Under the pieces are notes generated by a model. It did not search any database and was not told where the DNA came from. It saw only the letters and a program-made list of their open reading frames with translations. A stretch of 58,120 nt of DNA from an uncultured Pseudomonadota bacterium. GTDB lineage: Bacteria > Pseudomonadota > Alphaproteobacteria > Rs-D84. Within the stretch, counting starts at the first letter, position 1. Every line of letters starts with the position of its first letter. This document shows positions 2,096 through 46,964 of this stretch, in pieces. The DNA lies in assembly GCA_902793005.1 (NCBI GenBank), contig CADBBQ010000008.1, forward strand, positions 1 through 58,120, in the 5' to 3' direction. A program made the translations under genes and the position numbers.

Positions 2096-2339
2096 TGCCA
2101 AACCCGACAAAATGCAAAAGCGTTTTGTCATCCTGAGCGCAGTCGAAAGCGGTCGTCAGACCGCGCGGATCTGGGTTTGGCAAAGACAAATTTGTTGGCG
2201 CGTATGCGCCATGGCATCAAATATGCCTGGATCCGCGCTCGCGGAACGCTCGCTTTCGACTGCGTTCGATTACTTATGGAACTGTCATTCCAATGTAATC
2301 TCACTACGCTCAGGATGACAAAAGCCTTTGGCTTTTGTC
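2096..2339. repeat. Solo copy of REP-like nested-hairpin element A (GTCATCCTGAGC...GCTCAGGATGAC)
   Basis: Clearly homologous to 39063-39321 and 39696-39959; core inverted repeats at 2127-2138 and 2308-2319. Confidence 0.9.
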
Positions 2340-3437: not shown

Positions 3438-4322
3438 ATGAGAAAATACATCGCGATTTTTATTGTTTGTATGGTGGTCGTGCCGGCCTTTGCCGCGGGA
3501 CGGTCACTGATTAATAATAATGCATCGCGTGCCGGGATGATTAATGGGGCGGGGCGGATGCCGACTTTGTCTGTGCCATATACTGTAAATAATAATTCGG
3601 TTGTGTCGGGTGCAACCAATAATGCGTCGCGTGATGATGCCGGCGTGGTGGCGGATGATGATGCGTCGGTGGCTGACGATGTGCCGCCGGTTAATCGGGA
3701 CAAGGAAAAATTGGCATGTATCAGTAATAATGTCGGCGTTGGGAATACTTTCGTTTGGGCGTCGAAAGACAGTAACACGTCCAGTTATGCATCGATGGTC
3801 GAAGATGTGAAAAATCCTGAAAATAATGTGTGTTTTGTTTTGGTTGGTATGCGCGCTGATGATTCCAGAATTAATGTTTCGGATATTCAACCACAATATT
3901 TCGAGTGGGGGAAAAATATAACCTGTGGCGCGTGGACTGACGAGGCAAAGTTAGAAAAACGAATTTTGGATGCGAAAAAAACTGCACGGACATTGGCAAC
4001 CGTTGGCGGTGCCGTCGGTGGTGCGGGTATTGGCGTGGGGGCTATGGAATTGTTCGGAAACAAGGCGTTATCTAATATAAACGGATTGCAAGGGTTAGAG
4101 GGACAAAAGCAATTTGATGAAGGGTCTACCGAATGGTATGCGGCCAAGGCGGCGGAACTGAAAAACAAGGCGAAAAACAACAACAGTTTAAAAATCGAAT
4201 ACAATCGGTTTGTTGATTTGGTTGATAATTTGCGGGCAGAGTGCAATGGGGAAAATCCTGATTCAAAATGCAATGATGCGAAATATAAAAACTTGGCAGG
4301 GTTGAAATTGGAAAAATTATAA
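3438..4322 (+). CDS. Secreted hypothetical protein with glycine-zipper-like segment
   Basis: Signal peptide; hydrophobic Gly-rich stretch TVGGAVGGAGIGVGA. Confidence 0.7.
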   Translation: MRKYIAIFIVCMVVVPAFAAGRSLINNNASRAGMINGAGRMPTLSVPYTVNNNSVVSGATNNASRDDAGVVADDDASVADDVPPVNRDKEKLACISNNVGVGNTFVWASKDSNTSSYASMVEDVKNPENNVCFVLVGMRADDSRINVSDIQPQYFEWGKNITCGAWTDEAKLEKRILDAKKTARTLATVGGAVGGAGIGVGAMELFGNKALSNINGLQGLEGQKQFDEGSTEWYAAKAAELKNKAKNNNSLKIEYNRFVDLVDNLRAECNGENPDSKCNDAKYKNLAGLKLEKL

Positions 4323-4430: not shown

Positions 4431-5456
4431 ATGGATGATTTATTTGATAAATTACTGATTTTGCGGTCGCCGGGTGTCGGGCCGGTCGGATATCAAAATA
4501 TGATTCGACAATTTGGCTCGGTTCAGGCGGCGGCGGCCGGATTGCACGATGATGGTGCGCTGTGTGATAAGGTTATGCGCGAAATGGATGCGGCGGCGGC
4601 GGCCGGGGTGCGGTTCGTTGATGATAGTTCAGAATATTATCCGGTGGCCTTGAAAAATGTTAAAAATCATCCGCCGGTGATTTCGGTGCGGGGAAATATT
4701 GAAACTTTACGGCGTCCAATGGTTGGAATCGTTGGAACGCGACACGCGACCGCCACGGGAATGCGATTCGTTGCAGAATTGGCCGAATCGTTTGCGGCGC
4801 ATAATATTGCGGTTGTGTCGGGGATGGCAATTGGAACCGATACGGCGGCACATCGTGGCGCGCTGCGTGCCGCGGGGAACACCCAGACTGTGGCGGTTTT
4901 GGGCGGTGGGGTTGATTATATATGGCCGGTGGAAAACGAATCGTTGTATTGGGAAATTGTGGAACGTGGTGCCGTTATCAGCGAAATGCCGTTCGGGTTT
5001 GTACCAAAAGGCCCGAACTTTGTGCAACGAAATCGATGGATTGCCGGATTGGCAGATAAATTGATTTTAAGCGAGGCCGATTTGAATTCTGGCAGTATGC
5101 GAACCGCGGATTTCGCAATCGGATTAAACCGTGAATTGTGGGCGGTGCCGTCGCATCCGTCGGATGCACGATCGCTGGGGCCTAATTCGTTAATTGCACG
5201 GGGCGCGGCGCGGTTGTGTTCGGGAAAAAATGATTTTTTCAAAACAGGTGAAAAATCTGTTAAAGGGGATGAAAAAAATTCAAAAAATGATGATGTGGAA
5301 AATTTAGTTTTAGATGCGATTGGTTCGGTTCCGGTTTCAGAGTCTGTATTGGCAGATGTTGTCAAAAAAAGTGTTTCGGAAATTAAACGTTGTTTGGTTG
5401 TTCTGGAATTGCGCGGTTTGGTGCAAAAACAGAACGGCGGATATGTCAGATTATGA
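4431..5456 (+). CDS. dprA: DNA-processing protein DprA
   Basis: IVGTR, VVSGMAIGTD, FVQRNRWIAGL, C-terminal LELRG winged helix. Confidence 0.95.
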   Translation: MDDLFDKLLILRSPGVGPVGYQNMIRQFGSVQAAAAGLHDDGALCDKVMREMDAAAAAGVRFVDDSSEYYPVALKNVKNHPPVISVRGNIETLRRPMVGIVGTRHATATGMRFVAELAESFAAHNIAVVSGMAIGTDTAAHRGALRAAGNTQTVAVLGGGVDYIWPVENESLYWEIVERGAVISEMPFGFVPKGPNFVQRNRWIAGLADKLILSEADLNSGSMRTADFAIGLNRELWAVPSHPSDARSLGPNSLIARGAARLCSGKNDFFKTGEKSVKGDEKNSKNDDVENLVLDAIGSVPVSESVLADVVKKSVSEIKRCLVVLELRGLVQKQNGGYVRL

Positions 5457-5944
5457 TAAAAATCTTGTCAATACAATGTATATACATTAGGCGAAAAACC
5501 GGGAAAAAAACGAATCGTTGTCAAAATATAAAAGTTGAAAAAGGAACTAAGAATTTGTTGAAAATTGGAACGGGTGTTCTAAATTTGTAATGTCAAAAAA
5601 AAGAAGAGAAACAAAAACCAAAAAAACATTTGATGATTTGAATTTTTGAGTGTCGGGTGATTTTTTGTGACGAATGTTTTTGAATAAAAATGTTTGGACA
5701 TAATAAAAACCAAAAAAATTAAATTATCAAATTACATTTTTGCGAGAGAGAGTAGGGCATAAATAAACATTGGATTTTTTATCTGAAAATAAAACCAGAT
5801 AAAATTTAATGTTTTTGTGCAGGTGGCTTTTGCAACATTTTTTTGAAAATATTCAATTTAAATGTTGCAGAACAAAACGGTTTGAAAAAATCTCTTGCGC
5901 GGGCAGGAAACTCTTTTCAGAAAGGAAGGAAAAGGAGAAACGGC

Positions 5945-7213
5945 ATGCAGGCAGCAACATTAAAACAAAACGCAAATGTATCTGAAATTCGCGATATGAT
6001 TGCGAAGGAGATGGATTTTGCGGCTTGGACTTCTTGGATTGCGCCGTTGGATTTTAATGTTGTGGATGATGTGTTGGTGCTGATTGCACAAAATCAGTTT
6101 TCTGCGGATTATATTTCGGGTGTTTATGGTGCGTTATTAAAAAATGTTGCGGCCGAATTTGGTTTAAATGTGAAATTGGTTGTGCGTGGTGTGGCGGCTG
6201 CATCAATTGCAAATGATAATAATGTGCAATCTTATGATGCGCCGGTTGTGGAAAAAACATCGCCGGTTGCGTTTGATGCGTTTATTTCATCGGATGAAAA
6301 TGCGTTTGCGTTGACGGCGGCAAAACGCGTGGCGGCCGGGGCGGTATCATTTTCGCCACTGTTTATTTATGGGCCGGCGGGTTGTGGAAAATCTTTGTTG
6401 GCGGGTTGTATCAAATCCGAATCGGAAAATGTTATTTTGATGACGGGTGCGGGGTTTGTTTCGGAATTTGCGCGTGCGTTGAAAAATCGTAATGTGTTCG
6501 CGTTCAAGGATTTCTGCCGCAATTGTGATACATTTATTTTGGATGATGTGCAGAGTTTGGCGGGTAAAAATGCAACAACCGAAGAATTCTTGCAATTGGT
6601 TTTGGATTTGCGTGCCGCGGGTAAAAATGTTGTTTTGACATCCACTGTGGCGCCAAATGCTTTGACCGGTTTTGACAGACGCGCCCAATCATTGTTGGCA
6701 TCTGGATTGGTTGTTGATATGGTGGCACCAAACGCAAATGTTAAACACGAAATGTTGGTGCGCGCCGGGGTTAAATCCGACATCGCTGATGCAATTGCAA
6801 AACGTATCGCGGGTAACGGTCATTTGATTGCCGGTGTGGTGAATAAAATCAAAACATATTCTGAATTGATGGGACAGGACGCCACATTGGATGTTGTGGA
6901 ACATTTGTTGGCGGATACATTGGAAAAATTCAAAACACCAATTTCTATGGTTAAAATGATGTGTGAAAAATTGGGCGTTGCATATGATGCAATTTGTGGG
7001 GCGGGGCGTTCAAAATCTTTGGTATTGGCGCGTCAAATCATTATGGTTGTATTGAAAAATTCGACACGGTTATCTTTGACCGAAATTGGAAATTATGTTG
7101 GTAATCGTGATCACGCAACCGTTATGTATGCATTGCGTCAAATTGAAAAGATGAAACAGACTGATTTGGTATTAGATGCACAGATTAACCAATTAATTGC
7201 CGAATGTAAATAA
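5945..7213 (+). CDS. dnaA: Replication initiator DnaA with a divergent AAA+ domain
   Basis: PLFIYGPAGCGKS, ILDDVQ, domain IV RDHATVMYA; ATG at 5945 follows an AGGAG SD. Confidence 0.9.
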   Translation: MQAATLKQNANVSEIRDMIAKEMDFAAWTSWIAPLDFNVVDDVLVLIAQNQFSADYISGVYGALLKNVAAEFGLNVKLVVRGVAAASIANDNNVQSYDAPVVEKTSPVAFDAFISSDENAFALTAAKRVAAGAVSFSPLFIYGPAGCGKSLLAGCIKSESENVILMTGAGFVSEFARALKNRNVFAFKDFCRNCDTFILDDVQSLAGKNATTEEFLQLVLDLRAAGKNVVLTSTVAPNALTGFDRRAQSLLASGLVVDMVAPNANVKHEMLVRAGVKSDIADAIAKRIAGNGHLIAGVVNKIKTYSELMGQDATLDVVEHLLADTLEKFKTPISMVKMMCEKLGVAYDAICGAGRSKSLVLARQIIMVVLKNSTRLSLTEIGNYVGNRDHATVMYALRQIEKMKQTDLVLDAQINQLIAECK

Positions 7214-7375: not shown

Positions 7376-7617
7376 CGGTGCGTGTAACGCACCGTCTCCT
7401 TCTTTATGAAAGAAGGAGTACCCGCGTTAGCGGGGGAGGTAATTGTGAAATGTTTGTTTTAATTGGTGTGATTGCAATTAAAAATTATAATTATAAATAA
7501 AAGAATGATGAAATTTTTTATGGCGACTGTCGTCGCCGTGCACAACTACCCCGTCACTCAACCTGATGGTTTCGTGCCACCCCTTCTTTCATAAAGAAGG
7601 GGACGGTGCAAGCACCG
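7376..7617. repeat. Inverted pair of family B palindromes (REPIN-like)
   Basis: gcaccgtctccttctttatgaaagaagg is the reverse complement (1 mismatch in 28) of ccttctttcataaagaaggggacggtgc. Confidence 0.75.
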
Positions 7618-10851: not shown

Positions 10852-10852
10852 T

Positions 10853-10890
10853 CAAAGTACAAAGTACAAAGTTCAAAGTACAAAGTTCAA
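10853..10890 (+). repeat. Heptamer array followed by a bidirectional terminator (~10905-10934)
   Basis: caaagtacaaagtacaaagttcaaagtacaaagttcaa. Confidence 0.8.
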
Positions 10891-10941
10891 TTAATGTAAA
10901 AATAAAAAACTTTGGCGGGCGCCAAAGTTTTTTTTGTTTCA

Positions 10942-26983: not shown

Positions 26984-27219
26984 TTCAGAGTACAGAGTAC
27001 AAAGTTCAAAGTTCAGTTGTGGCATAATTATTATTCCGGACATTCCCCTTCTTTTTGTGCTGGCGCACAGAAAAGACGGGGAATGTCCGGGCAGTTCAAA
27101 TTACCCCGTCTGACTCGCGTTGCTCGTCATCCACCCCTTCTTTGTGAAAGAAGGAGACGGTACGAGAACAAATTATCCTGCAACAACTGAACTCTGAACT
27201 CTGAAAACTGAACTCTGAA
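26984..27219. repeat. Composite element: inverted heptamer arrays flanking a long hairpin (27036-27090) and a family B palindrome (27103-27161)
   Basis: ttcagagtacagagtacaaagttcaaagttcagttg ... caactgaactctgaactctgaaaactgaactctgaa. Confidence 0.7.
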
Positions 27220-27243
27220 AAAAAACCGGGCGATGCCCGGGTT

Positions 27244-31089: not shown

Positions 31090-33936
31090 ATGAAGCGTAG
31101 AACAGGATTTTATTCAGTAATTTTGACCAGCGTTGTTTGTATGCTGGGTGGTTCTGCGTTTGCGGCATCGTCGGTTCGTATGTTGGGAACGGGGGCGAAA
31201 ACTGTGTCGGCGGGCACAGGGGATGCAACAACGGGTGCGTCCGTTGATGGTGGTGCAAAATCTGGGGTTGCCACAACGGCGGTTGCACAGACAACGCGTG
31301 CATCGTCTTTGCGATTTACGCCAAATGCGACAAATAAAACGGTTGCCGCCCAAGGATATTCGGGGTTGGCAACAAATGGTAATGCGCAATCTGCGAATAA
31401 CAATGGTGTTGGAATTACGACATCGCCGTCGGCACGTTTGTCGATTGGAAAATATCTGAATTTATCACATTCCAGTAATGCCGTGACACCGGGGGGAACA
31501 ACCGGCGGTGGTACGGGAACGGGGACCGGTGCAACGGATGAAAATTTGGATGCATTGCGGACTGAATTGGATGCATTACAAAACCAGGTTGACAGATTAA
31601 AAGATGACAAGCAAAACGCTTTGATTGTTGGTGATGGTGAATATATTGATATTGCCGGGCCGGATAATAATGTTATCTCGATTGATATAAATGCATTAAA
31701 AAATGATTTGCAGGCTGCATTGGATACGAAAAAACCGATACTGACCGAAATAGATGATAACTATAAATTGTGGTGGTGTTATGCCAATGCGACAGAGACC
31801 GCGTGCGATGGCGAAAAACGTTCGGTTGTCGATTTAGGCAAGGTTTTGGAAGAATATGATTTGGCCAATGAAAATATTTCTTTAAAAGATGCGTTGGCCG
31901 GTAAACAGGGAATATTAGGCGAGGCCGATAATGGTTTTATCACAATTAATCAACAGGCTGGGACAATCGGATTGAAATTCGACGAGTTAAGGGCCGCGTT
32001 GGGAATTGATAATGCAAAAACATCTGAAATCAGATATACCGATGATGGTAAACTGCAATGGCGGTATATGGATGAATTTGAGCAAAATGGTGATAAAAAA
32101 TGGAATACGGCCGATATTGCGGCGTTGATGCGTCAAAGTTTGGAAAACTATGTCCAGATTCAGGCATTGGAAGATTATGTGCAAAAATCTGAGTTGTCAG
32201 GATTGCAAACTACATTGGTCGCGGATGAAAACGGTTATTTGAAAATCCAAGATAATCAAATCGGTGTAAAGTTTGACGAGTTGCGGGCTGCTTTGAATAT
32301 TCCAACAGAACGCGAAATCGAAATGGAATTTGACGATGATGGCAAAATCCAATGGCGGTATGCGGGGGCCGATGCGTGGCATAAAACAAATAAAAAAGTC
32401 AGTGATTTTGTTGATTTGTCGGGGTATGTTTTGCGGTCTGAATTGGCCGGATTACAAGGCGCGTTGACTGCAAGTGAAAATGGATATTTGGAAATTAATA
32501 ACAATCAAATTGGTATTAAGTTTGATGATTTGAAAACGGCGTTGGATATACCGGGCGCCCAACGTGATATTGAAATGGAAATTACATCGGCGGGACAATT
32601 GCGCTGGCGTTATTTGGATGCGTTCGAGGCCGATGGTACGACAAAGAAATGGACGCCTGTTTCGGAAAATATCAATGATTTGATTGATTCTAAATTGGCG
32701 GGATACGCCAAACTTGACGATTTATCTGGATTGCAATTGACGATGTCAACGGATGAAAATGGATATTTGGAAATCAATGGCGATACGATAAATGTCAAAT
32801 TTGATAAGTTAAAATCTGATTTGAATATTCCGGCGGCCCAACGCGATATTGAAATGGAAATCACATCGGCGGGACAATTACAGTGGCGTTATCTGGATGC
32901 GTTCGAGGCCGATGGGACTACAAAGAAATGGACGCCTGTTTCGGTAAATATCAATGATTTGATTGATGGTAAATTGGCGAACTATGTCAGTAATGAAAGT
33001 TTGACCAATACATTGAACGATTATGTGACCAACAATAATTTGTCGACCACATTGGCGGATTATGCAACCAAGACATATGTCGATAACGGTTTGGCCACGC
33101 GTCAGGTTAAATTGACCGAGGCCGCAAACGGATTTATTGAAATTAAACCTGTGGATGGCGCAGAGACTAATACAATTGGAATCAAGTTTGATGAATTAAA
33201 AACTGCGTTGAATATTCCAGATGCCAAAACATCCGAATTGCGTGTTAATAACGGTGTGCTGCAATGGCGTTATGTTGATGAATTCGAAGATGAACCAGAT
33301 GCGCAAACGGGCGAGCCTGTTAAAAAATGGACTGATGTTTATGATTTAAATGCAAAATTGGGCGATTGGGTCACGAATACAGATTTTAATGCGGCGATAA
33401 ATCGTATAGATTCTGAATTGGCGGGCAAGCAAATAAAATTAACCCCGGCCGATGGTGGATACATTATTTTGGATGAACAAACTGGTGAAATCGCGGTTGA
33501 TATGTCCAGCCTGCGCCAGCAATTATCGATTGATGGGAATAATGCGCGGACATCTGAATTGCGTGTGTTTGACGGTAAATTGCAGTGGCGGTATTTGGAC
33601 GAATTTGAAACTGACGACCAAAATAACCAGGTTGCTGTGTGGCACGTTTTAGATTTGGATACGGTTGAATTGCCGTTATATACCGAAAAATCATATTTAT
33701 GGAAAAATTATTACAATAAAACATATGTTGACAATTTGGCGCGAACAATTGAAAACAATATTAATACGACATTGGAACGTTTGGCGTTGCCGGATGGGCC
33801 GGATGCTGGGTTGTATATGTTAAGTGTCAAAGGCAGTGGTGATAACAAGGTTTCAACGTGGAGTCCGGTGCAAATCGTCGATGCTGACGGTAATGTCCAG
33901 AATTTCGCCCTGGATAGTTCGGACAGCGGAGATTAA
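31090..33936 (+). CDS. Large secreted repeat protein (about six xxLQWRY repeats)
   Basis: Signal peptide; repeated ENGYLEI...IGIKFDEL...GxLQWRY units; near-identical DNA at 32557-32700 and 32836-32979. Confidence 0.85.
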   Translation: MKRRTGFYSVILTSVVCMLGGSAFAASSVRMLGTGAKTVSAGTGDATTGASVDGGAKSGVATTAVAQTTRASSLRFTPNATNKTVAAQGYSGLATNGNAQSANNNGVGITTSPSARLSIGKYLNLSHSSNAVTPGGTTGGGTGTGTGATDENLDALRTELDALQNQVDRLKDDKQNALIVGDGEYIDIAGPDNNVISIDINALKNDLQAALDTKKPILTEIDDNYKLWWCYANATETACDGEKRSVVDLGKVLEEYDLANENISLKDALAGKQGILGEADNGFITINQQAGTIGLKFDELRAALGIDNAKTSEIRYTDDGKLQWRYMDEFEQNGDKKWNTADIAALMRQSLENYVQIQALEDYVQKSELSGLQTTLVADENGYLKIQDNQIGVKFDELRAALNIPTEREIEMEFDDDGKIQWRYAGADAWHKTNKKVSDFVDLSGYVLRSELAGLQGALTASENGYLEINNNQIGIKFDDLKTALDIPGAQRDIEMEITSAGQLRWRYLDAFEADGTTKKWTPVSENINDLIDSKLAGYAKLDDLSGLQLTMSTDENGYLEINGDTINVKFDKLKSDLNIPAAQRDIEMEITSAGQLQWRYLDAFEADGTTKKWTPVSVNINDLIDGKLANYVSNESLTNTLNDYVTNNNLSTTLADYATKTYVDNGLATRQVKLTEAANGFIEIKPVDGAETNTIGIKFDELKTALNIPDAKTSELRVNNGVLQWRYVDEFEDEPDAQTGEPVKKWTDVYDLNAKLGDWVTNTDFNAAINRIDSELAGKQIKLTPADGGYIILDEQTGEIAVDMSSLRQQLSIDGNNARTSELRVFDGKLQWRYLDEFETDDQNNQVAVWHVLDLDTVELPLYTEKSYLWKNYYNKTYVDNLARTIENNINTTLERLALPDGPDAGLYMLSVKGSGDNKVSTWSPVQIVDADGNVQNFALDSSDSGD

Positions 33937-37426: not shown

Positions 37427-38716
37427 TTACAGGTCTGCGTTCAAGCCATCTGTTTCCATATTTGTCCATTCATAGACTGGGGTGCTACCGTTCATAACCA
37501 TGGTCAGAACGCACGGACTACCTACTTTGCAGTTGGATGACCCGTCGCCACCCCTTGTGTTGATTTCGGATAGTCCGGCATTCATTGCTTTGTCGTAATC
37601 TAAGATTCCTTTGGCTGCAGCAACTTGACCGTTGGTTTGGGTGACTTGTACCACTGCTTGGCCATTACCGGTGTTTTGGGCTGCTGTCAAATCCAAACCC
37701 TCAACAGTGGTTGCGTTATCATCGGCTTTCTTTTCCAATTTACCCAAGGCAACATTTAAAGTATCTGTTGCTGCCAGGTTCCTGTCGGCTCCTGTTGCTG
37801 ATGATATCGTGTAGCCTGTGATTGCACCCATTTTATTGGTTGTGATTGCTGCGTTGTCTGCAACACCAGCATTTGTGATTTGACCTTCGGTTACTGCAAT
37901 TATACCGTCTGTTTCTGTGACCGCTACAACGGGACGTCCATCAACGTGATCGCCTGAGGCAATTGTGTAGTCCAACGCACTGGTTCCAGCACCGACGGCG
38001 GCTGTGATACGGCTTTCAACTGCACTTAATGTTGGGACATATTTATCTTCTTCTCCTCTTTTTGCTGCTTTGGCAAGTGCTTTTTCGGCCTCGGTCTCGC
38101 CCGCTTCGCTTGCCTCGTTCCACGCCTTTGTTGAATCTCCTTGTTTTACGATAAAGTCTGTTTTTGGCATTGTGACACTGCTGTCTGCGATTTTATCAGT
38201 CGTCACCGCACCATTTTTAATCTTGTTCGTCTCAACCGCATCAGTTGCTAGTTTGGCGGCTGTTACTGCGCTATCGGCTATTTTACCTTCGGCGACTGCA
38301 CCATTGGTGATATCGTTTGTGTTAACGGTTCCACTGGTGACCGCAACTTGACCGTCAGTTTGGGTTACGGTTTTAATAACCCCGGTTTGTTCCTCGGCGG
38401 TTAAATCCAATGCATTAATCGCATCAGTTGCACCAGACGTAATTGCGCTTGCGACAGCACCAGAAGTAACCAGATTAGTAGAATTTGCAGTTACGGTAGA
38501 ATCAATTCCTGTATAGTCGACTGTTCCGGCGGTTGATGTTGCGGTAACAACTTTACCCGCCGTGGCGCCACCGCCCAAGTTATCTTGTTTCGTGTTATCA
38601 CGTGCGTCGACGTATGCCTTGGACGCGATGATTGTTGCGTCGGTTGCTGCGTATGCGCCGCCCATCCCCAATATGGATGCCATTACGCCGCAAAAGGCCA
38701 GGTTTCTGATTTTCAT
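37427..38716 (-). CDS. Secreted fibre/adhesin-like protein
   Basis: Signal peptide, IASKAYVD...KQD, (GAVTxxKIAD) repeats, VxQTDG repeats, C-terminal C-x4-PCVLT...W. Confidence 0.85.
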   Translation of the reverse strand: MKIRNLAFCGVMASILGMGGAYAATDATIIASKAYVDARDNTKQDNLGGGATAGKVVTATSTAGTVDYTGIDSTVTANSTNLVTSGAVASAITSGATDAINALDLTAEEQTGVIKTVTQTDGQVAVTSGTVNTNDITNGAVAEGKIADSAVTAAKLATDAVETNKIKNGAVTTDKIADSSVTMPKTDFIVKQGDSTKAWNEASEAGETEAEKALAKAAKRGEEDKYVPTLSAVESRITAAVGAGTSALDYTIASGDHVDGRPVVAVTETDGIIAVTEGQITNAGVADNAAITTNKMGAITGYTISSATGADRNLAATDTLNVALGKLEKKADDNATTVEGLDLTAAQNTGNGQAVVQVTQTNGQVAAAKGILDYDKAMNAGLSEINTRGGDGSSNCKVGSPCVLTMVMNGSTPVYEWTNMETDGLNADL

Positions 38717-39062
38717 GTTATTTTCCCTTTGTTTTTGTTTGTTTGTTTGTATTGTTGTGGGGGGTGGACGGTGCGTTCGCACCGACAAATTGCCTTTATG
38801 CAGATTGTCCCTTCCCACATTTGTTATACATATTATATCACATTTTTTGTATAGACGCAAATCGCAGAATAATTTTTTTGTTAAATTTTTTGTTGTCTGG
38901 TGCGTGGCGCGAAAATTTTGCGCGCGCGCCGGAATTTCGCGCGTTTGCGCGTGGTTGTTGGGTGGCGGGATTTTATGTTTTTAAAAAAATCAAGTGATTT
39001 TTTTTCGCATTTTGTATTGGCATCCGTCTGTGCATCCGCACAGCCGCGATTGTGTCCGTCTG

Positions 39063-39321
39063 TTTGCCAAACCCGACAAAACGCAAACGCGTTTTGTCAT
39101 CCTGAGCGAAGTCGAAAGCGGTCGTTAGACCGCGGGGATCTGGGGTTTGGCAAGGACAAATAAGTTGGCGCGGCGGCGCCAGGGCATCAAATATGCCTGG
39201 ATCCGCGCTCGCGAAACGCTCGCTTTCGACTGCGTTCGATTACTTATGGGGCATAAGCCCCAACATAATCTCACTCCGCTCAGGATGACAAAAGCCAGTG
39301 GCTTTTGTCCGGTTTGGCAAA
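39063..39321. repeat. REP-like nested-hairpin element A, copy downstream of the GIY-YIG gene
   Basis: Outer TIR tttgccaaacc/ggtttggcaaa; core GTCATCCTGAGC/GCTCAGGATGAC. Confidence 0.9.
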
Positions 39322-39329
39322 TAGAAAAT

Positions 39330-39632
39330 TCAAATCACCGGTATATCAATCCAATCTGGATTCATTGATTCTATTAAATATTTCTTTTTATCTCTGGTCC
39401 ATCGTTTCAACTGTTTTTCACGCGCAATCGCCACATTGATATATTGATAAATCTCGATATAAACCAATGTGTGTACGTTATATCGTGCGGTAAAACTGTT
39501 TTTGATTATGTTGTTTTTATGTTCCCAAACACGGCGCACGATATTATCCGTCACCCCGATATACAACACACCATCAGGTTTGGATGCCATAATATAAACA
39601 TAATATTTATGTTGAACAAAATCAGATTTCAT
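39330..39632 (-). CDS. Small GIY-YIG nuclease
   Basis: YYVYIM...LYIGVT, RRVWEHK, AIAREKQLKRW, NPDW. Confidence 0.92.
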   Translation of the reverse strand: MKSDFVQHKYYVYIMASKPDGVLYIGVTDNIVRRVWEHKNNIIKNSFTARYNVHTLVYIEIYQYINVAIAREKQLKRWTRDKKKYLIESMNPDWIDIPVI

Positions 39633-39695
39633 AATTATCAGGTTAAAACACACAAACAAAAACGCAATGTATTTTTGTTATGGTGTGTTCGTCTG

Positions 39696-39959
39696 TTTGC
39701 CAAACCCGACAAAACGCGTTTGCGTTTTGTCATCCTGAGCGAAGTCGAAAGTCAGACGCGATAGCGGATGACGCGGATCTGGGGTTTGGCAAAGGCAAAC
39801 AAGTTGGCGCGGATGCGCCAAAGCATCAAATATGCCTGGATCCGCGCTCGCGAAACGCTCGCTTTCGACTGCGTTCGATTACTTATGGGGCACAAGCCCC
39901 AACATAATCTCACTCCGCTCAGGATGACAAAAAAACGCAGATGCGTTTTTTCTGTTTGG
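39696..39959. repeat. REP-like nested-hairpin element A, copy upstream of the GIY-YIG gene
   Basis: Direct repeat of 39063-39321. Confidence 0.9.
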
Positions 39960-40208
39960 ATTGTGGGTGGGGTGGAATAGGGTTGTATATACAAAAAATT
40001 TGAAAATTTTTTAAAAAATTATGCACTAAAAATCCCGGAAATCTGCGTGGTTGCAAAAATATTTTAATTTTTTTTCATTTTTTTAATTTTTTTGCTTGCG
40101 TATATACATTGAAAGTTGCTATATAATGTAATGACAATGTTGGAGGTATATATTTTTCGCGATATTTGTCCCCAGCATCGGTCACACACACAAACGAAGG
40201 AAAAGGAA

Positions 40209-41147
40209 ATGAAATTTAAAAATGTTGCCTGGGCGGGTATGTTGTTTTCTGTATTTGCCTGGGGCGGACACGCGTGGGCGGATGCCACGGTTATTGCGTC
40301 CAAGGCCTATGTCGATGCCAAGGATGCGTTAAAGCAAGATAAATTGAAAACCGGAGCGGGCGGAAATGTTACGGTCAGTGCCGGGAATGGTAATGCCAGC
40401 ACCGCGATTACCGGCGTTACGGCCAGTGGGGACGGTACATTGACATTTACCACACAAACAATCCAATCTTCGTCGGCGACGGATTATATCAGCGACGGGA
40501 CAAACGCGTTGGAGTTGACCAGTGCCACAGACAAGGCACCGTCTGTCAAGGCGGTTATTGGTGCGGCGGCAACCACGGCCCCTGTGTCTGTTGCAAATGG
40601 TACGGCAACAATTACGGCGGGGGATGATAAACATTTTATTACATCCAAGGCGGTTGGTACTGCATTTAATAACTTGGATGCCACAGGTGTTGACGGCAGT
40701 TCGGATGCGGAGACAACGGCCAATCGTGGAAAACCGGTTGTTGCGGTTAGTCAGACAAATGGTTTGATTACGGCAGAACTGGGAACGGTTACGGTAAATG
40801 GTATCGCAAATGGTGCGGTGACAGTGGACAAACTGGCAACTGATGCGGTTGTGACGGACAAGATTAAAGATGAGGCGGTGACAAGTGAAAAAATCGCAAA
40901 TGGAACAATTACAGATGTCGATGTCAAAGACGGCGCATTAAAATATCAAAATGATATGAATAATACAAAATTGCTTGATATTAATACGGGGGCGGCGCCG
41001 GCAAATGATGTTTGTACCGAGGCGGTGCCGTGTATGCTGACATATTACAGAAAGGGTGGCAAGGTTTATACCCGTTGGTCACCACTGGCGGCCGAGGGAT
41101 TGACGCCTGCGGCGGTCGAGACTGATGCGGGTTCGCCGGCATCGTAA
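40209..41147 (+). CDS. Secreted fibre/adhesin-like protein, paralog of 37427-38716
   Basis: DATVIASKAYVDAKD..KQDKL, GKPVVAVSQTNG, GAVTVDKLATDAV, C-x4-PCMLT...W. Confidence 0.85.
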   Translation: MKFKNVAWAGMLFSVFAWGGHAWADATVIASKAYVDAKDALKQDKLKTGAGGNVTVSAGNGNASTAITGVTASGDGTLTFTTQTIQSSSATDYISDGTNALELTSATDKAPSVKAVIGAAATTAPVSVANGTATITAGDDKHFITSKAVGTAFNNLDATGVDGSSDAETTANRGKPVVAVSQTNGLITAELGTVTVNGIANGAVTVDKLATDAVVTDKIKDEAVTSEKIANGTITDVDVKDGALKYQNDMNNTKLLDINTGAAPANDVCTEAVPCMLTYYRKGGKVYTRWSPLAAEGLTPAAVETDAGSPAS

Positions 41148-44105: not shown

Positions 44106-45107
44106 ATGGCGCATCAATTTTTCTTTAATCCGTATATTTTGGATAATTTGCCCGCGCCCGAGAGGGGGTTTGATGTTGTCCAAGATATTTCAGAACCCAG
44201 ACTGCGTATGTATATAACATCGCGTGGGGCGAAAACTTTCTTTGTGCGGCATCGTGTTCGTGGACGTGATAGACGGGTGATTATTGGTGCGTATCCAGAT
44301 ATGGATATAGAGGTGGCGCGTGACAAGGTGGCGGCGGTATTAAATGAATCCAGTAAAAAATTACCTGTGCGCCGTAAAAAAATATCTTTTCGTGATTTTT
44401 GGGATATTTATTTAAAAAACAAAGTGCGCAGATGCGAAGATTCCGAGGTAAAATTAGTGCGTGCGGTAAATATGCACTTGGCGGATTTGTTCGATAAAAA
44501 TATTGCCGATATATCCGAGTCTGATGTTCGTGCGGTTATTTCAAAAATTAATGGTGCGGCCGTTGCGGTGCGTATGCAAGATGTGTTGAACAGTATTTTC
44601 AAATATGCCATAGAGCAGGGTTATGCAAAAGCAAATCCGGTTGCAAATTTGCCAAAGATTGAATTGGCACGCCGGGTCAGTCCGTTGACCGATGAATCTT
44701 TTTTGCGGTTGATGGATGTTATTCGGGCGGTGGAATCGGATGTTATGCGTAATGCGTTTTTGATGTTGGTGTATGGTTTTTTGCCGCGAAATAAAGTTTT
44801 ATCTATGCGCTGGGAAGATTTGGATTTTAATCATTATATGTGGCGTGATTGGCCTTTGTCGAATATGGCGGTTGTGTTGTTGGAAAATATGGCGCAATAT
44901 GGCGATTGGGTTTTTGTTGGTCGTTGTAAAAATCATTTGGCCGACCCGCGTGTTGCGTGGCACAATGTTGCAAGGGATGCGGGTATGCCAAATCTGAGAA
45001 TGGATGATGTTTATAAATTTTTAATGCGGCGATTGAAATGGGCCGCTGACCGTGAAGATTTGCGCGAAAATATGAATAAATTATTGGAACATTACTCTAT
45101 ATATTAA
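44106..45107 (+). CDS. Tyrosine-recombinase-like protein with Arm DNA-binding domain and degenerate catalytic site
   Basis: LRMYITSRGAKTF...IGAYP..AR (P4-integrase-type Arm domain), NP motif, MRWEDLDF; the HxxR position reads DDVY. Confidence 0.75.
   Translation: MAHQFFFNPYILDNLPAPERGFDVVQDISEPRLRMYITSRGAKTFFVRHRVRGRDRRVIIGAYPDMDIEVARDKVAAVLNESSKKLPVRRKKISFRDFWDIYLKNKVRRCEDSEVKLVRAVNMHLADLFDKNIADISESDVRAVISKINGAAVAVRMQDVLNSIFKYAIEQGYAKANPVANLPKIELARRVSPLTDESFLRLMDVIRAVESDVMRNAFLMLVYGFLPRNKVLSMRWEDLDFNHYMWRDWPLSNMAVVLLENMAQYGDWVFVGRCKNHLADPRVAWHNVARDAGMPNLRMDDVYKFLMRRLKWAADREDLRENMNKLLEHYSIY

Positions 45108-46887: not shown

Positions 46888-46964
<77 letters not shown>

Follow-up and report, generated by a model that had tools for sequence, protein, structure and literature searches.

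The ssn locus

The window analysed here, the whole 58,120-nt stretch of contig CADBBQ010000008.1, encodes a small GIY-YIG nuclease that belongs to the Ssn family (gene ssn). The gene is located outside the repeats, between two complete, direct copies (A and B) of a heavily self-pairing repeat of about 260 nt; a third copy (C) stands alone in another part of the window. The features are listed in Table 1. This arrangement had been described in a first-pass annotation of the sequence, and the gene between two direct copies was confirmed by the open reading frame (ORF), its Pfam match (E 1e-15) and the alignment of the copies. No second GIY-YIG gene of this type was found in the window by tblastn (1 match), so copy C is without an adjoining one, as annotated. 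The three sites had been placed correctly; the extent of the cluster, given as 39063..39959, was amended, the repeats with their outer stem ending at 39321, 39960 and 2339.

The nuclease

The Ssn proteins are site-specific single-stranded-DNA (ssDNA) nucleases that are paired with repeats (Chenal et al., Nat Commun 2025, PMC11893778; hereafter Chenal et al., 2025, selected parts of which are drawn upon here). SsnA of Neisseria meningitidis is a 94-residue, single-domain GIY-YIG protein (cd10448); the repeats are termed Ssn-related motifs (SRM) and their Neisseria form NTS (Chenal et al., 2025). In the literature library searched, no later primary study of the family was returned.

The chosen ATG of the window ORF agrees with the start of its homologs. 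The Pfam GIY-YIG family (PF01541) covers residues 18-93 of the protein and is its sole family match, with no extra DNA-binding domain. NCBIfam matches were sub-threshold only, the group I intron endonuclease model scoring 20 bits against a cut-off of 56.05, and the nuclease was unmatched by the PADLOC defence models. Residues Y13, Y24, R34, E37, E72 and N91 are invariant in 35 homologs. UPF0213 structural-genomics proteins BH0048 (1zg2) and EF2693 (1ywl) are related in sequence to the homolog profile (E 2.6e-08 and 7.5e-07, respectively), but only distantly so, and their entries carry no function.

The window protein is 48% identical to an ssnA-type ORF of Neisseria gonorrhoeae over 86 of its 100 residues (E 4e-27 in the pairwise comparison; tblastn E 2e-17). 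Homologs were accepted by Chenal et al. (2025) when aligned over >75% of the query with E below 1e-10, and the window protein lies within both limits with respect to the gonococcal ORF. In this alignment Y13, Y24 and E72 face Y2, Y13 and E60. The substitutions Y6A, Y17A and E64A abolish cutting by SsnA (Chenal et al., 2025), and with an offset of four residues between the two Neisseria numberings Y13, Y24 and E72 of the window protein would correspond to Y6, Y17 and E64 of the published enzyme.

Architecture of the repeats

The three copies, with a mean column identity of 86% in a MAFFT alignment, were recovered by the repeat search of the window as families D1 and D4. Identity over the 161-nt D1 block is 94% for A against B and 83% for A against C. 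The 13-mer GTCATCCTGAGCG was matched seven times in the window at up to 2 mismatches (0.44 expected from shuffles); six of the matches are perfect, two per repeat copy and on opposite strands. The seventh match, a degenerate arm start (GTCAGCCTAAGCG, 2 mismatches) at 2002-2014 on the minus strand, about 95 nt before copy C, may be a decayed arm or chance.

Each copy is a dimer of two arms. All six arms read TTTTGTCATCCTGAGCG and have the form TGTC-ATCC...GGAT-C-(TGG/CAG), with a closure of GGATC-TGG or GGATC-CAG that is consistent with the NTS tail ATCYRG. The tags point outward, with one correctly oriented motif per strand. Between ATCC and GGAT, the left-arm loops measure 33, 33 and 39 nt and every right-arm loop 78 nt; the inter-arm spacers of the three copies are of 52, 52 and 51 nt. 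The ssn gene has, on either side, oriented arms in which a GTC tag is followed by a palindrome that starts with AT and then by a C; the right arm of copy A is on the ssn sense strand and begins 40 nt past the ssn stop codon.

Folding of each copy was well beyond that of its own shuffles (z about -10 to -11 on both strands; -139.3 kcal/mol and z -11.0 for copy A). In the minimum-energy fold of copy A the arms are paired with each other, ATCCTGAGCG with CGCTCAGGAT and AGTCGAAAG with CTTTCGACT. The copies differ in their hairpins and ends: two hairpins of copy B are swapped for different ones and its outer stem is degenerate at the 3' end, and copy C, which sits between convergent genes, is without the 3' half of the outer stem. 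The first-pass annotation had stressed that hairpins changed in sequence while still pairing. Such changes are visible in the alignment and the fold, but the statistics are weak, as only three copies were available: both partners had changed in 3 of the 101 pairs, a result matched by 43 of 500 shuffles. A different pairing of the terminal hairpins was selected by RNAalifold. No target-site duplication was seen around copies A, B and C by inspection of the sequence.

Table 1. Positions of the ssn gene, the three repeat copies and the parts of copy A in the window
Feature	Position	Strand	Description	Basis
ssn gene	39330..39632	-	Ssn-family nuclease of 100 aa with a single GIY-YIG domain; stop 39330-39332, ATG 39630-39632	ORF list, Pfam, homolog comparison
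Repeat copy A	39063..39321	no strand	head-to-head dimer of two Ssn-related hairpin motifs; outer stem TTTGCCAAACC/GGTTTGGCAAA closes the whole repeat	alignment, D1/D4, fold, outer-stem matches
Copy A terminal hairpin 1	39075..39098		GACAAAACGC..GCGTTTTGTC; TGTC tag of left arm within its 3' strand, paired in the minimum-energy fold	
Copy A left arm	39095..39143	+	TGTC tag, ATCC stem, 33-nt loop with mini-hairpin, GGAT stem, C-TGG tail	motif scans
Copy A inter-arm spacer	39144..39195		52 nt; small hairpins TTGGCGC..GCGCCA and GGCAT..ATGCC	sequence, fold
Copy A right arm	39196..39290	-	TGTC tag, ATCC stem, 78-nt loop with nested hairpins, GGAT stem, C-CAG tail	motif scans
Copy A terminal hairpin 2	39287..39309		GACAAAAGCC..GGCTTTTGTC	sequence, fold
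Repeat copy B	39696..39960		same dimer type; left arm 39728-39782 (+, 39-nt loop), right arm 39835-39929 (-, 78-nt loop)	
Repeat copy C	2096..2339		solo, 37 kb off; left arm 2126-2174 (+), right arm 2226-2320 (-)	

Gene and repeats at homologous loci

More than 1000 homologs of close length to the window protein were returned by the homolog search. Several predicted homologs had odd N- or C-terminal tails, such as arise where an ORF prediction reads on into a GTCATTCC...GGAATGAC-type palindrome; this was the first hint of a general linkage. Representative genomes were then scanned with an 11-sequence alignment. This gave 593 confirmed places, from which the top 80 were retained as loci; many phyla are represented. 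The window's own genome is not one of these 80, among which the best identity to the window protein is 62%, and the N. gonorrhoeae locus (L081) was added to give 81.

The first-pass annotation had made its proposal depend in part on homologous nucleases being linked to such repeats, and they are. The upstream flank was compared with the downstream flank at the 68 loci with 400 nt on both sides, and scores were set against the 95th percentile of 232 shifted controls. Inverted flanking repeats exceeded this threshold at 34 of the 68 loci and direct repeats at 26 of 68, about 3.4 being expected in either case. The inverted flanks nearly always read (C/T)GTCATTCC-hairpin-GGAATCCAG, gene, CTGGATTCC-hairpin-GGAATGAC. 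GTCAT and ATGAC were enriched 3-4 fold in the 300 nt nearest the gene, at 2.65 to 4.17 per kb as against 1.0 per kb elsewhere. As judged from the nearest 5-mer, the gene is inside a pair at 35 of 79 loci and outside, as in the window, at 6; the remaining 38 are mixed or without a 5-mer on one side. Strict NTS are present on both flanks at L073 and L053, the proteins of which are 50-56% identical to the window protein. The published degenerate SRM pattern was found within 1 kb of the gene at 30 of 80 loci, and on both sides at 12; Chenal et al. (2025) reported a degenerate motif in 71% of homolog regions and on both sides in 42%.

This linkage bears on the possibility that the repeats are an ordinary MITE of a classical transposon, next to a GIY-YIG gene by chance. 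The terminal inverted sequences and the presence of several copies would suit a MITE. The same linkage in dozens of unrelated genomes, and in the survey of Chenal et al. (2025), would not, nor would the missing target-site duplication. Moreover, no transposase family was among the Pfam matches of 19 scanned window ORFs, the nearest being a phage-integrase-like N-terminal half (44106-45107). A chance neighbourhood of this kind is barely plausible.

Units without a gene were found as well. Tandem arrays of gene-less units are present at L068 and L066, having the same arms as the single unit that holds the gene, and gene-less pairs of both flanks were found at 12 of 77 loci. A second gene copy occurs within about 12 kb at only 1 of 80 loci. 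The occurrence of one unit in both filled and empty form, as at L068 and L066, would also suit a GIY-YIG homing endonuclease of the free-standing kind, which would cut empty sites in double-stranded DNA and insert a copy of itself there, the repeats being its homing sites, and the similarity to the group I intron endonuclease model, although weak, points the same way. We regard this as highly unlikely. The score is far below the cut-off of that model; the protein is one 100-residue domain and, unlike I-TevI-type enzymes, which occur in introns or phage genomes, has no joined DNA-binding domain; the window gene lies outside the repeats; and phage matches are absent (see below). In the cited parts of Chenal et al. 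(2025), moreover, the homologs are described as leaving double-stranded DNA uncut.

A quick protein tree was computed, in which no branch is strongly supported, and the clustering of labels alone was used. Its clades mix phyla. The motif class clusters on this tree, NTS-like motifs requiring 9 changes (26.8 in shuffles) and GAGCG motifs 9 (18.8 in shuffles); for either class, 0 of 500 shuffles was as low. This is clustering and not evidence of co-evolution, because kin share labels.

The protein matched 33 records of the plasmid collection (tblastn), two of which are 2.17-Mb N. gonorrhoeae records, and 32 of the 33 are typed as non-mobilizable. It matched none of the 50,697 records of the phage collection, and copy A DNA had no match in the plasmid collection. 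At the closest homolog locus (L001) a perfect 16-nt direct repeat, TTTGGTAAATCGTTCC, brackets the gene-bearing unit at ~5822-5837 and ~6429-6444, at unequal distances from the two ends. As other loci did not show it as a rule, it was not taken for a target duplication.

A motif class with long loops

The class GTCA[TC][TC]CNGAGCG, to which the window arms belong, was found by motif scan at 23 of the 81 homolog loci as well as in the window. A complementary stem and a C close 60 of its 67 instances within 130 nt. The basic form has a loop of 12-14 nt (14 of 35 distinct loops), and longer loops hold inserts; 8 of the 20 loops of at least 22 nt fold better than 95% of their own shuffles. The 78-nt right-arm loops of the window are the longest in the set. 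The extra hairpins of the window repeats are inserts in the loop of the recognition hairpin, and the loop has grown by insertion of mini-hairpins between the short ATCC and GGAT stem halves. Comparison of the two scan tables placed 20 of the 23 GAGCG-class loci among those without a published-pattern SRM within 1 kb of the gene, and the motif strings of the window were not found in ten supplementary files of Chenal et al. (2025).

At L046 (~1557-1610 and ~3628-3680) one motif holds the 5' half of a second motif inside its loop (GTCATCCTGAGCGCAGTGTCCCTGTCATCCTGAGCGCAGCGAAGGATC). This partial duplication occupies the same loop position as the inserts at other loci.

Action at the level of DNA or RNA

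The whole window was matched in Rfam 15 by one tRNA only, with nothing on the repeats either at the gathering score or up to E 10. Mismatches in the flanking arms at 36 homolog loci were without a G-U strand bias (79 sense vs 78 antisense), and no strand of the window copies was consistently the better folded. The lack of an Rfam match, of a G-U bias and of a better strand is consistent with an element acting at the DNA level, in line with the published biochemistry. Promoter-like and terminator-like sites were no commoner around A and B than in shuffles. Around C, terminator-like sites were at the shuffle level and promoter-like sites numbered 5 against a mean of 1.3, which is uninformative as to the role of the repeat.

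The first-pass annotation had left room for an RNA substrate, and this option was not supported, in view of the Rfam and G-U results above and of the reported inactivity of SsnA on RNA (Chenal et al., 2025). In a broader form of the idea, the repeats would be structured RNA genes or signals (a small RNA, a terminator or an mRNA stabiliser) and the nuclease gene a mere neighbour. In favour of this are the high stability of the predicted folds, the fit of terminal hairpin 2 in copy C to a terminator-like pattern, and the proposal that REPs in general act in RNA. Against this, the two strands fold about equally, the sites around A and B stay at the shuffle level, gene and repeats are linked across phyla, and SsnA is reported not to bind RNA (Chenal et al., 2025). 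We consider RNA genes or signals a very improbable explanation.

Comparison with the Neisseria system

According to Chenal et al. (2025), SsnA binds the NTS, CGTCATTCCCGCGMAVGCGGGAATCYRG, as ssDNA only (and not as duplex DNA, RNA or the reverse strand) and cleaves a few nucleotides upstream of the motif; cleavage of ssDNA only, near the motif, was shown for four homologs, Neisseria and Wolbachia enzymes being among them. The proteins characterised include those of N. meningitidis, N. elongata, N. wadsworthii and Wolbachia. The three nucleotides before the palindrome matter for cutting, and the C right after it is the most important for binding. Cutting persists when the hairpin halves are on separate oligonucleotides (Chenal et al., 2025), which makes a long loop plausible. 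Loss of ssnA raises transformation with NTS-bearing DNA five-fold, and NTS cluster near surface-protein genes in Neisseria (Chenal et al., 2025).

Eleven NTS matches were found in the 3255 nt of the gonococcal locus, where they form +/- pairs, and the gene stands between dimers. Upstream, the motif closest to the gene is antisense, and a sense motif comes right after the stop codon. The order in the window is the same: the arm at 39728-39782 is antisense and upstream, and the arm at 39290..39196 is sense and lies 40 nt past the stop. Both systems have a single-domain GIY-YIG protein of about 95-100 residues with the catalytic residues, and oriented hairpin repeats in which a GTC tag lies 5' of a palindrome that starts with AT and C-YRG forms the tail. 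In both, the repeats are set in inverted pairs, the gene stands between dimers, and the repeats lie close to genes for surface-type proteins. They differ in that the local stem of the window motif is 4-5 bp and not 8, its loop is 33-78 nt and not about 3-9, there is extensive pairing between the arms of a window dimer, the tag is buried by additional terminal hairpins, and the window motif falls outside the published degenerate pattern.

Interpretation

The locus is most probably an Ssn system, that is, a gene for a small, site-specific ssDNA endonuclease together with its cognate hairpin repeats. The protein is a member of the family, the geometry of the locus is shared with Neisseria, and gene and repeats are linked in general. 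Each motif of the window retains the parts that were important in published mutagenesis: the GTC 5' of the palindrome, the AT-starting stem, and the C followed by YRG (Chenal et al., 2025). By analogy with the characterised enzymes, the window protein would cut this variant motif, with consequences for the cell. When DNA becomes single-stranded (during uptake in transformation, conjugation, replication or repair), the arms would fold; the 100-residue nuclease would bind the hairpin by sequence and shape, and nick a few nucleotides 5' of the tag. Repeat-bearing single strands would be cut, and recombination around the repeats would thereby be modulated. All of these steps are modelled on the homologs. 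The proposal of the first-pass annotation that the nuclease processes structured ssDNA is right in the published sense for the Neisseria and Wolbachia homologs (Chenal et al., 2025), and we infer the same for the window protein.

Several observations weigh against this interpretation. The published SRM pattern, HGTCWYN(0-2)YYVSBRHN(0-5)WNVSBRGN(0-2)RNCYNB, had no match in the window (mean of 30 shuffles, 0.03). The local stems are of 4-5 bp only and the arms pair with each other in the minimum-energy fold, so that the small hairpins may not form; and the dimer taken as one giant hairpin has a G, not a C, after the palindrome. Homology to SsnA was judged by proxy, with the N. gonorrhoeae ORF and not with the characterised N. 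meningitidis protein, and in the gonococcal record an ATG ahead of the ssnA-type ORF is out of frame (L081 1490-1510). Finally, the copies of the repeat were counted within the ~58 kb of the window only. As to the gonococcal gene itself, it is perhaps disrupted at its 5' end in this strain, or starts elsewhere.

The parallel with REP/RAYT REPtrons drawn in the first-pass annotation is sound and was already in print, the arrangement NTS-ssnA-NTS being likened to an insertion sequence and to REP/RAYT in the discussion of Chenal et al. (2025). Both kinds of system have short tagged palindromes, mostly in inverted pairs, a flanked nuclease gene that is usually single-copy, and an enzyme acting on folded ssDNA. 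They are set apart by the enzyme, a GIY-YIG nuclease and not a HUH tyrosine transposase, by the tag, CGTC/TGTC and not GTAG, and by strand-transfer chemistry, none being known for the GIY-YIG nuclease.

From this parallel follows a second reading, which can hold together with that of an Ssn system: a REPIN/RAYT-like mobile system, in which the nuclease multiplies the repeats and itself and the gene-less dimers are non-autonomous derivatives spread by nicking and subsequent host repair or copying. Gene-less pairs of the gene-flanking arms occur elsewhere at 12 of 77 loci, the tandem empty dimers of L068 and L066 accompany one unit with the gene in its loop, and the gene is inside a dimer at 35 of 79 loci, much as an insertion sequence is enclosed by its ends. 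The motif classes run parallel to protein clades of mixed phyla, and the same idea was raised by Chenal et al. (2025). Other features speak against mobility. The two cut sites of a dimer are on opposite strands, unlike those of IS200/IS605, and A, B and C are without a target-site duplication. GIY-YIG nucleases form no covalent DNA intermediate and are not known to have a strand-transfer activity. Many copies lie in tandem arrays, which are also a product of unequal crossing-over, and the phage records (0 of 50,697 matched) and plasmid records (32 of 33 non-mobilizable) weigh in the same direction. On balance a mobile system has a modest probability.

A more speculative and rather doubtful combination of these ideas may also be formulated. 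The Ssn gene and its head-to-head dimers would be a replicating REPIN/RAYT-like system built on a GIY-YIG nuclease, gene and motif would travel together between phyla, and gene-less dimers would be the non-autonomous offspring. The loop of the motif would be permissive for the insertion and swapping of mini-hairpins, and arm-to-arm pairing in the resulting giant dimers would compete with the recognition hairpins and so gate cutting.

The repeats of the window were also compared with the CGTC-tagged REPs (Di Nocera et al., BMC Genomics 2013, PMC3733652; likewise drawn upon in part). These have a CGTC or TGTC tag, an AT-starting stem of 8-9 bp, a loop of 4-5 nt and a CCA tail; they are found mostly in alpha-Proteobacteria and include dRS3 of Neisseria and RPE-4/-6 of Rickettsia (Di Nocera et al., 2013). 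Most form head-to-head dimers, with the tags outside and spacers of 20-100 bp that may hold small stem-loops, and no dedicated enzyme was found for them (Di Nocera et al., 2013). The flanks of the homolog loci fit this description exactly. The window repeats share the TGTC/CGTC tag, the AT-starting stem, the short CCA-like tail and the head-to-head dimers, with spacers of 51-52 nt and two small hairpins. They differ in that TGTC, present in six of six window arms, is paired in the terminal hairpins of the predicted fold, and in that stems of 4-5 bp and loops of 33, 33, 39 and 78 nt take the place of the 8-9-bp stem and the 4-5-nt loop. The Ssn gene is now a candidate enzyme for the CGTC-tagged REPs.

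Genomic surroundings

The window is part of a bacterial chromosome, with dnaA, gyrB, dprA, plsY, lpxI, lepA and rbfA (Pfam). The genome is probably alphaproteobacterial, because, of the closest GIY-YIG homologs, the two that bear a name come from Alphaproteobacteria metagenome-assembled genomes, and because the window encodes LpxI.

The cluster of copy A, ssn and copy B is flanked by divergent genes, 37427-38860 (-) and 40116-41147 (+), which are paralogs (34% identity, E 2e-21). Their products have N-termini that resemble signal peptides by eye, and weak matches to phage tail-fibre PHROGs (E 2e-06 and 7e-04). The ORF just upstream of copy C (126-1982) has a weak match to a virion structural protein (E 5e-08) and is not a paralog of the cluster-flanking genes. 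The repeats adjoin genes for fibre-like secreted proteins, which recalls, though with n=3 only, the position of NTS near surface-protein genes.

The gene for DNA-processing protein A (dprA) is at 4431-5456 (+; Pfam E 2e-61). DprA protects incoming ssDNA in transformation. Transformation is the setting in which the action of SsnA was published (Chenal et al., 2025).

An ORF at 44106-45107 (+) has only the arm-binding and central domains of a phage integrase and is 1.8 kb from tRNA-Pro(CGG) (46888-46964, +). The 948-aa ORF at 31090-33936 (+) is without a Pfam match and contains internal tandem repeats of ~249-387 nt (D2, D3, D9).

Other repeats are present in the window. An unrelated second family of CTGAACT/AGTTCAG-like heptamers (D7, D8) occupies 2348-2394, 27181-27227, 10852-10896 and 26985-27015; one of its copies directly follows repeat C and is in turn followed by a strong terminator-like hairpin (2383-2416). 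A 39-nt hairpin repeat, CCACCCCTTCTTT..AAAGAAGGGG, occurs at 7577-7615 and 27131-27169 with 82% identity (D10), and a similar hairpin, CCCTTCCCACG..CGTGGGAAGGG, is found at ~2033-2085, beside copy C.

Concluding remarks

That a tiny GIY-YIG nuclease is paired with hairpin repeats in set orientations has been in print since 2025 (Chenal et al., 2025), and the window adds a member and not a principle. The geometry of a gene between dimers, as in Neisseria, recurs in a distant genome. The published SRM search pattern misses a whole class of motifs, GTCAT-YCN-GAGCG...GRATC, which adjoins the gene at 23 of 81 homolog loci, and the loop of the motif tolerates insertions of up to 78 nt. For the development of Ssn enzymes as ssDNA cutters, a natural enzyme with a long, structured loop in its site would be a useful test of what the enzyme reads, and the family links the orphan CGTC-tagged REPs of 2013 to an enzyme, for which Ssn is the candidate.

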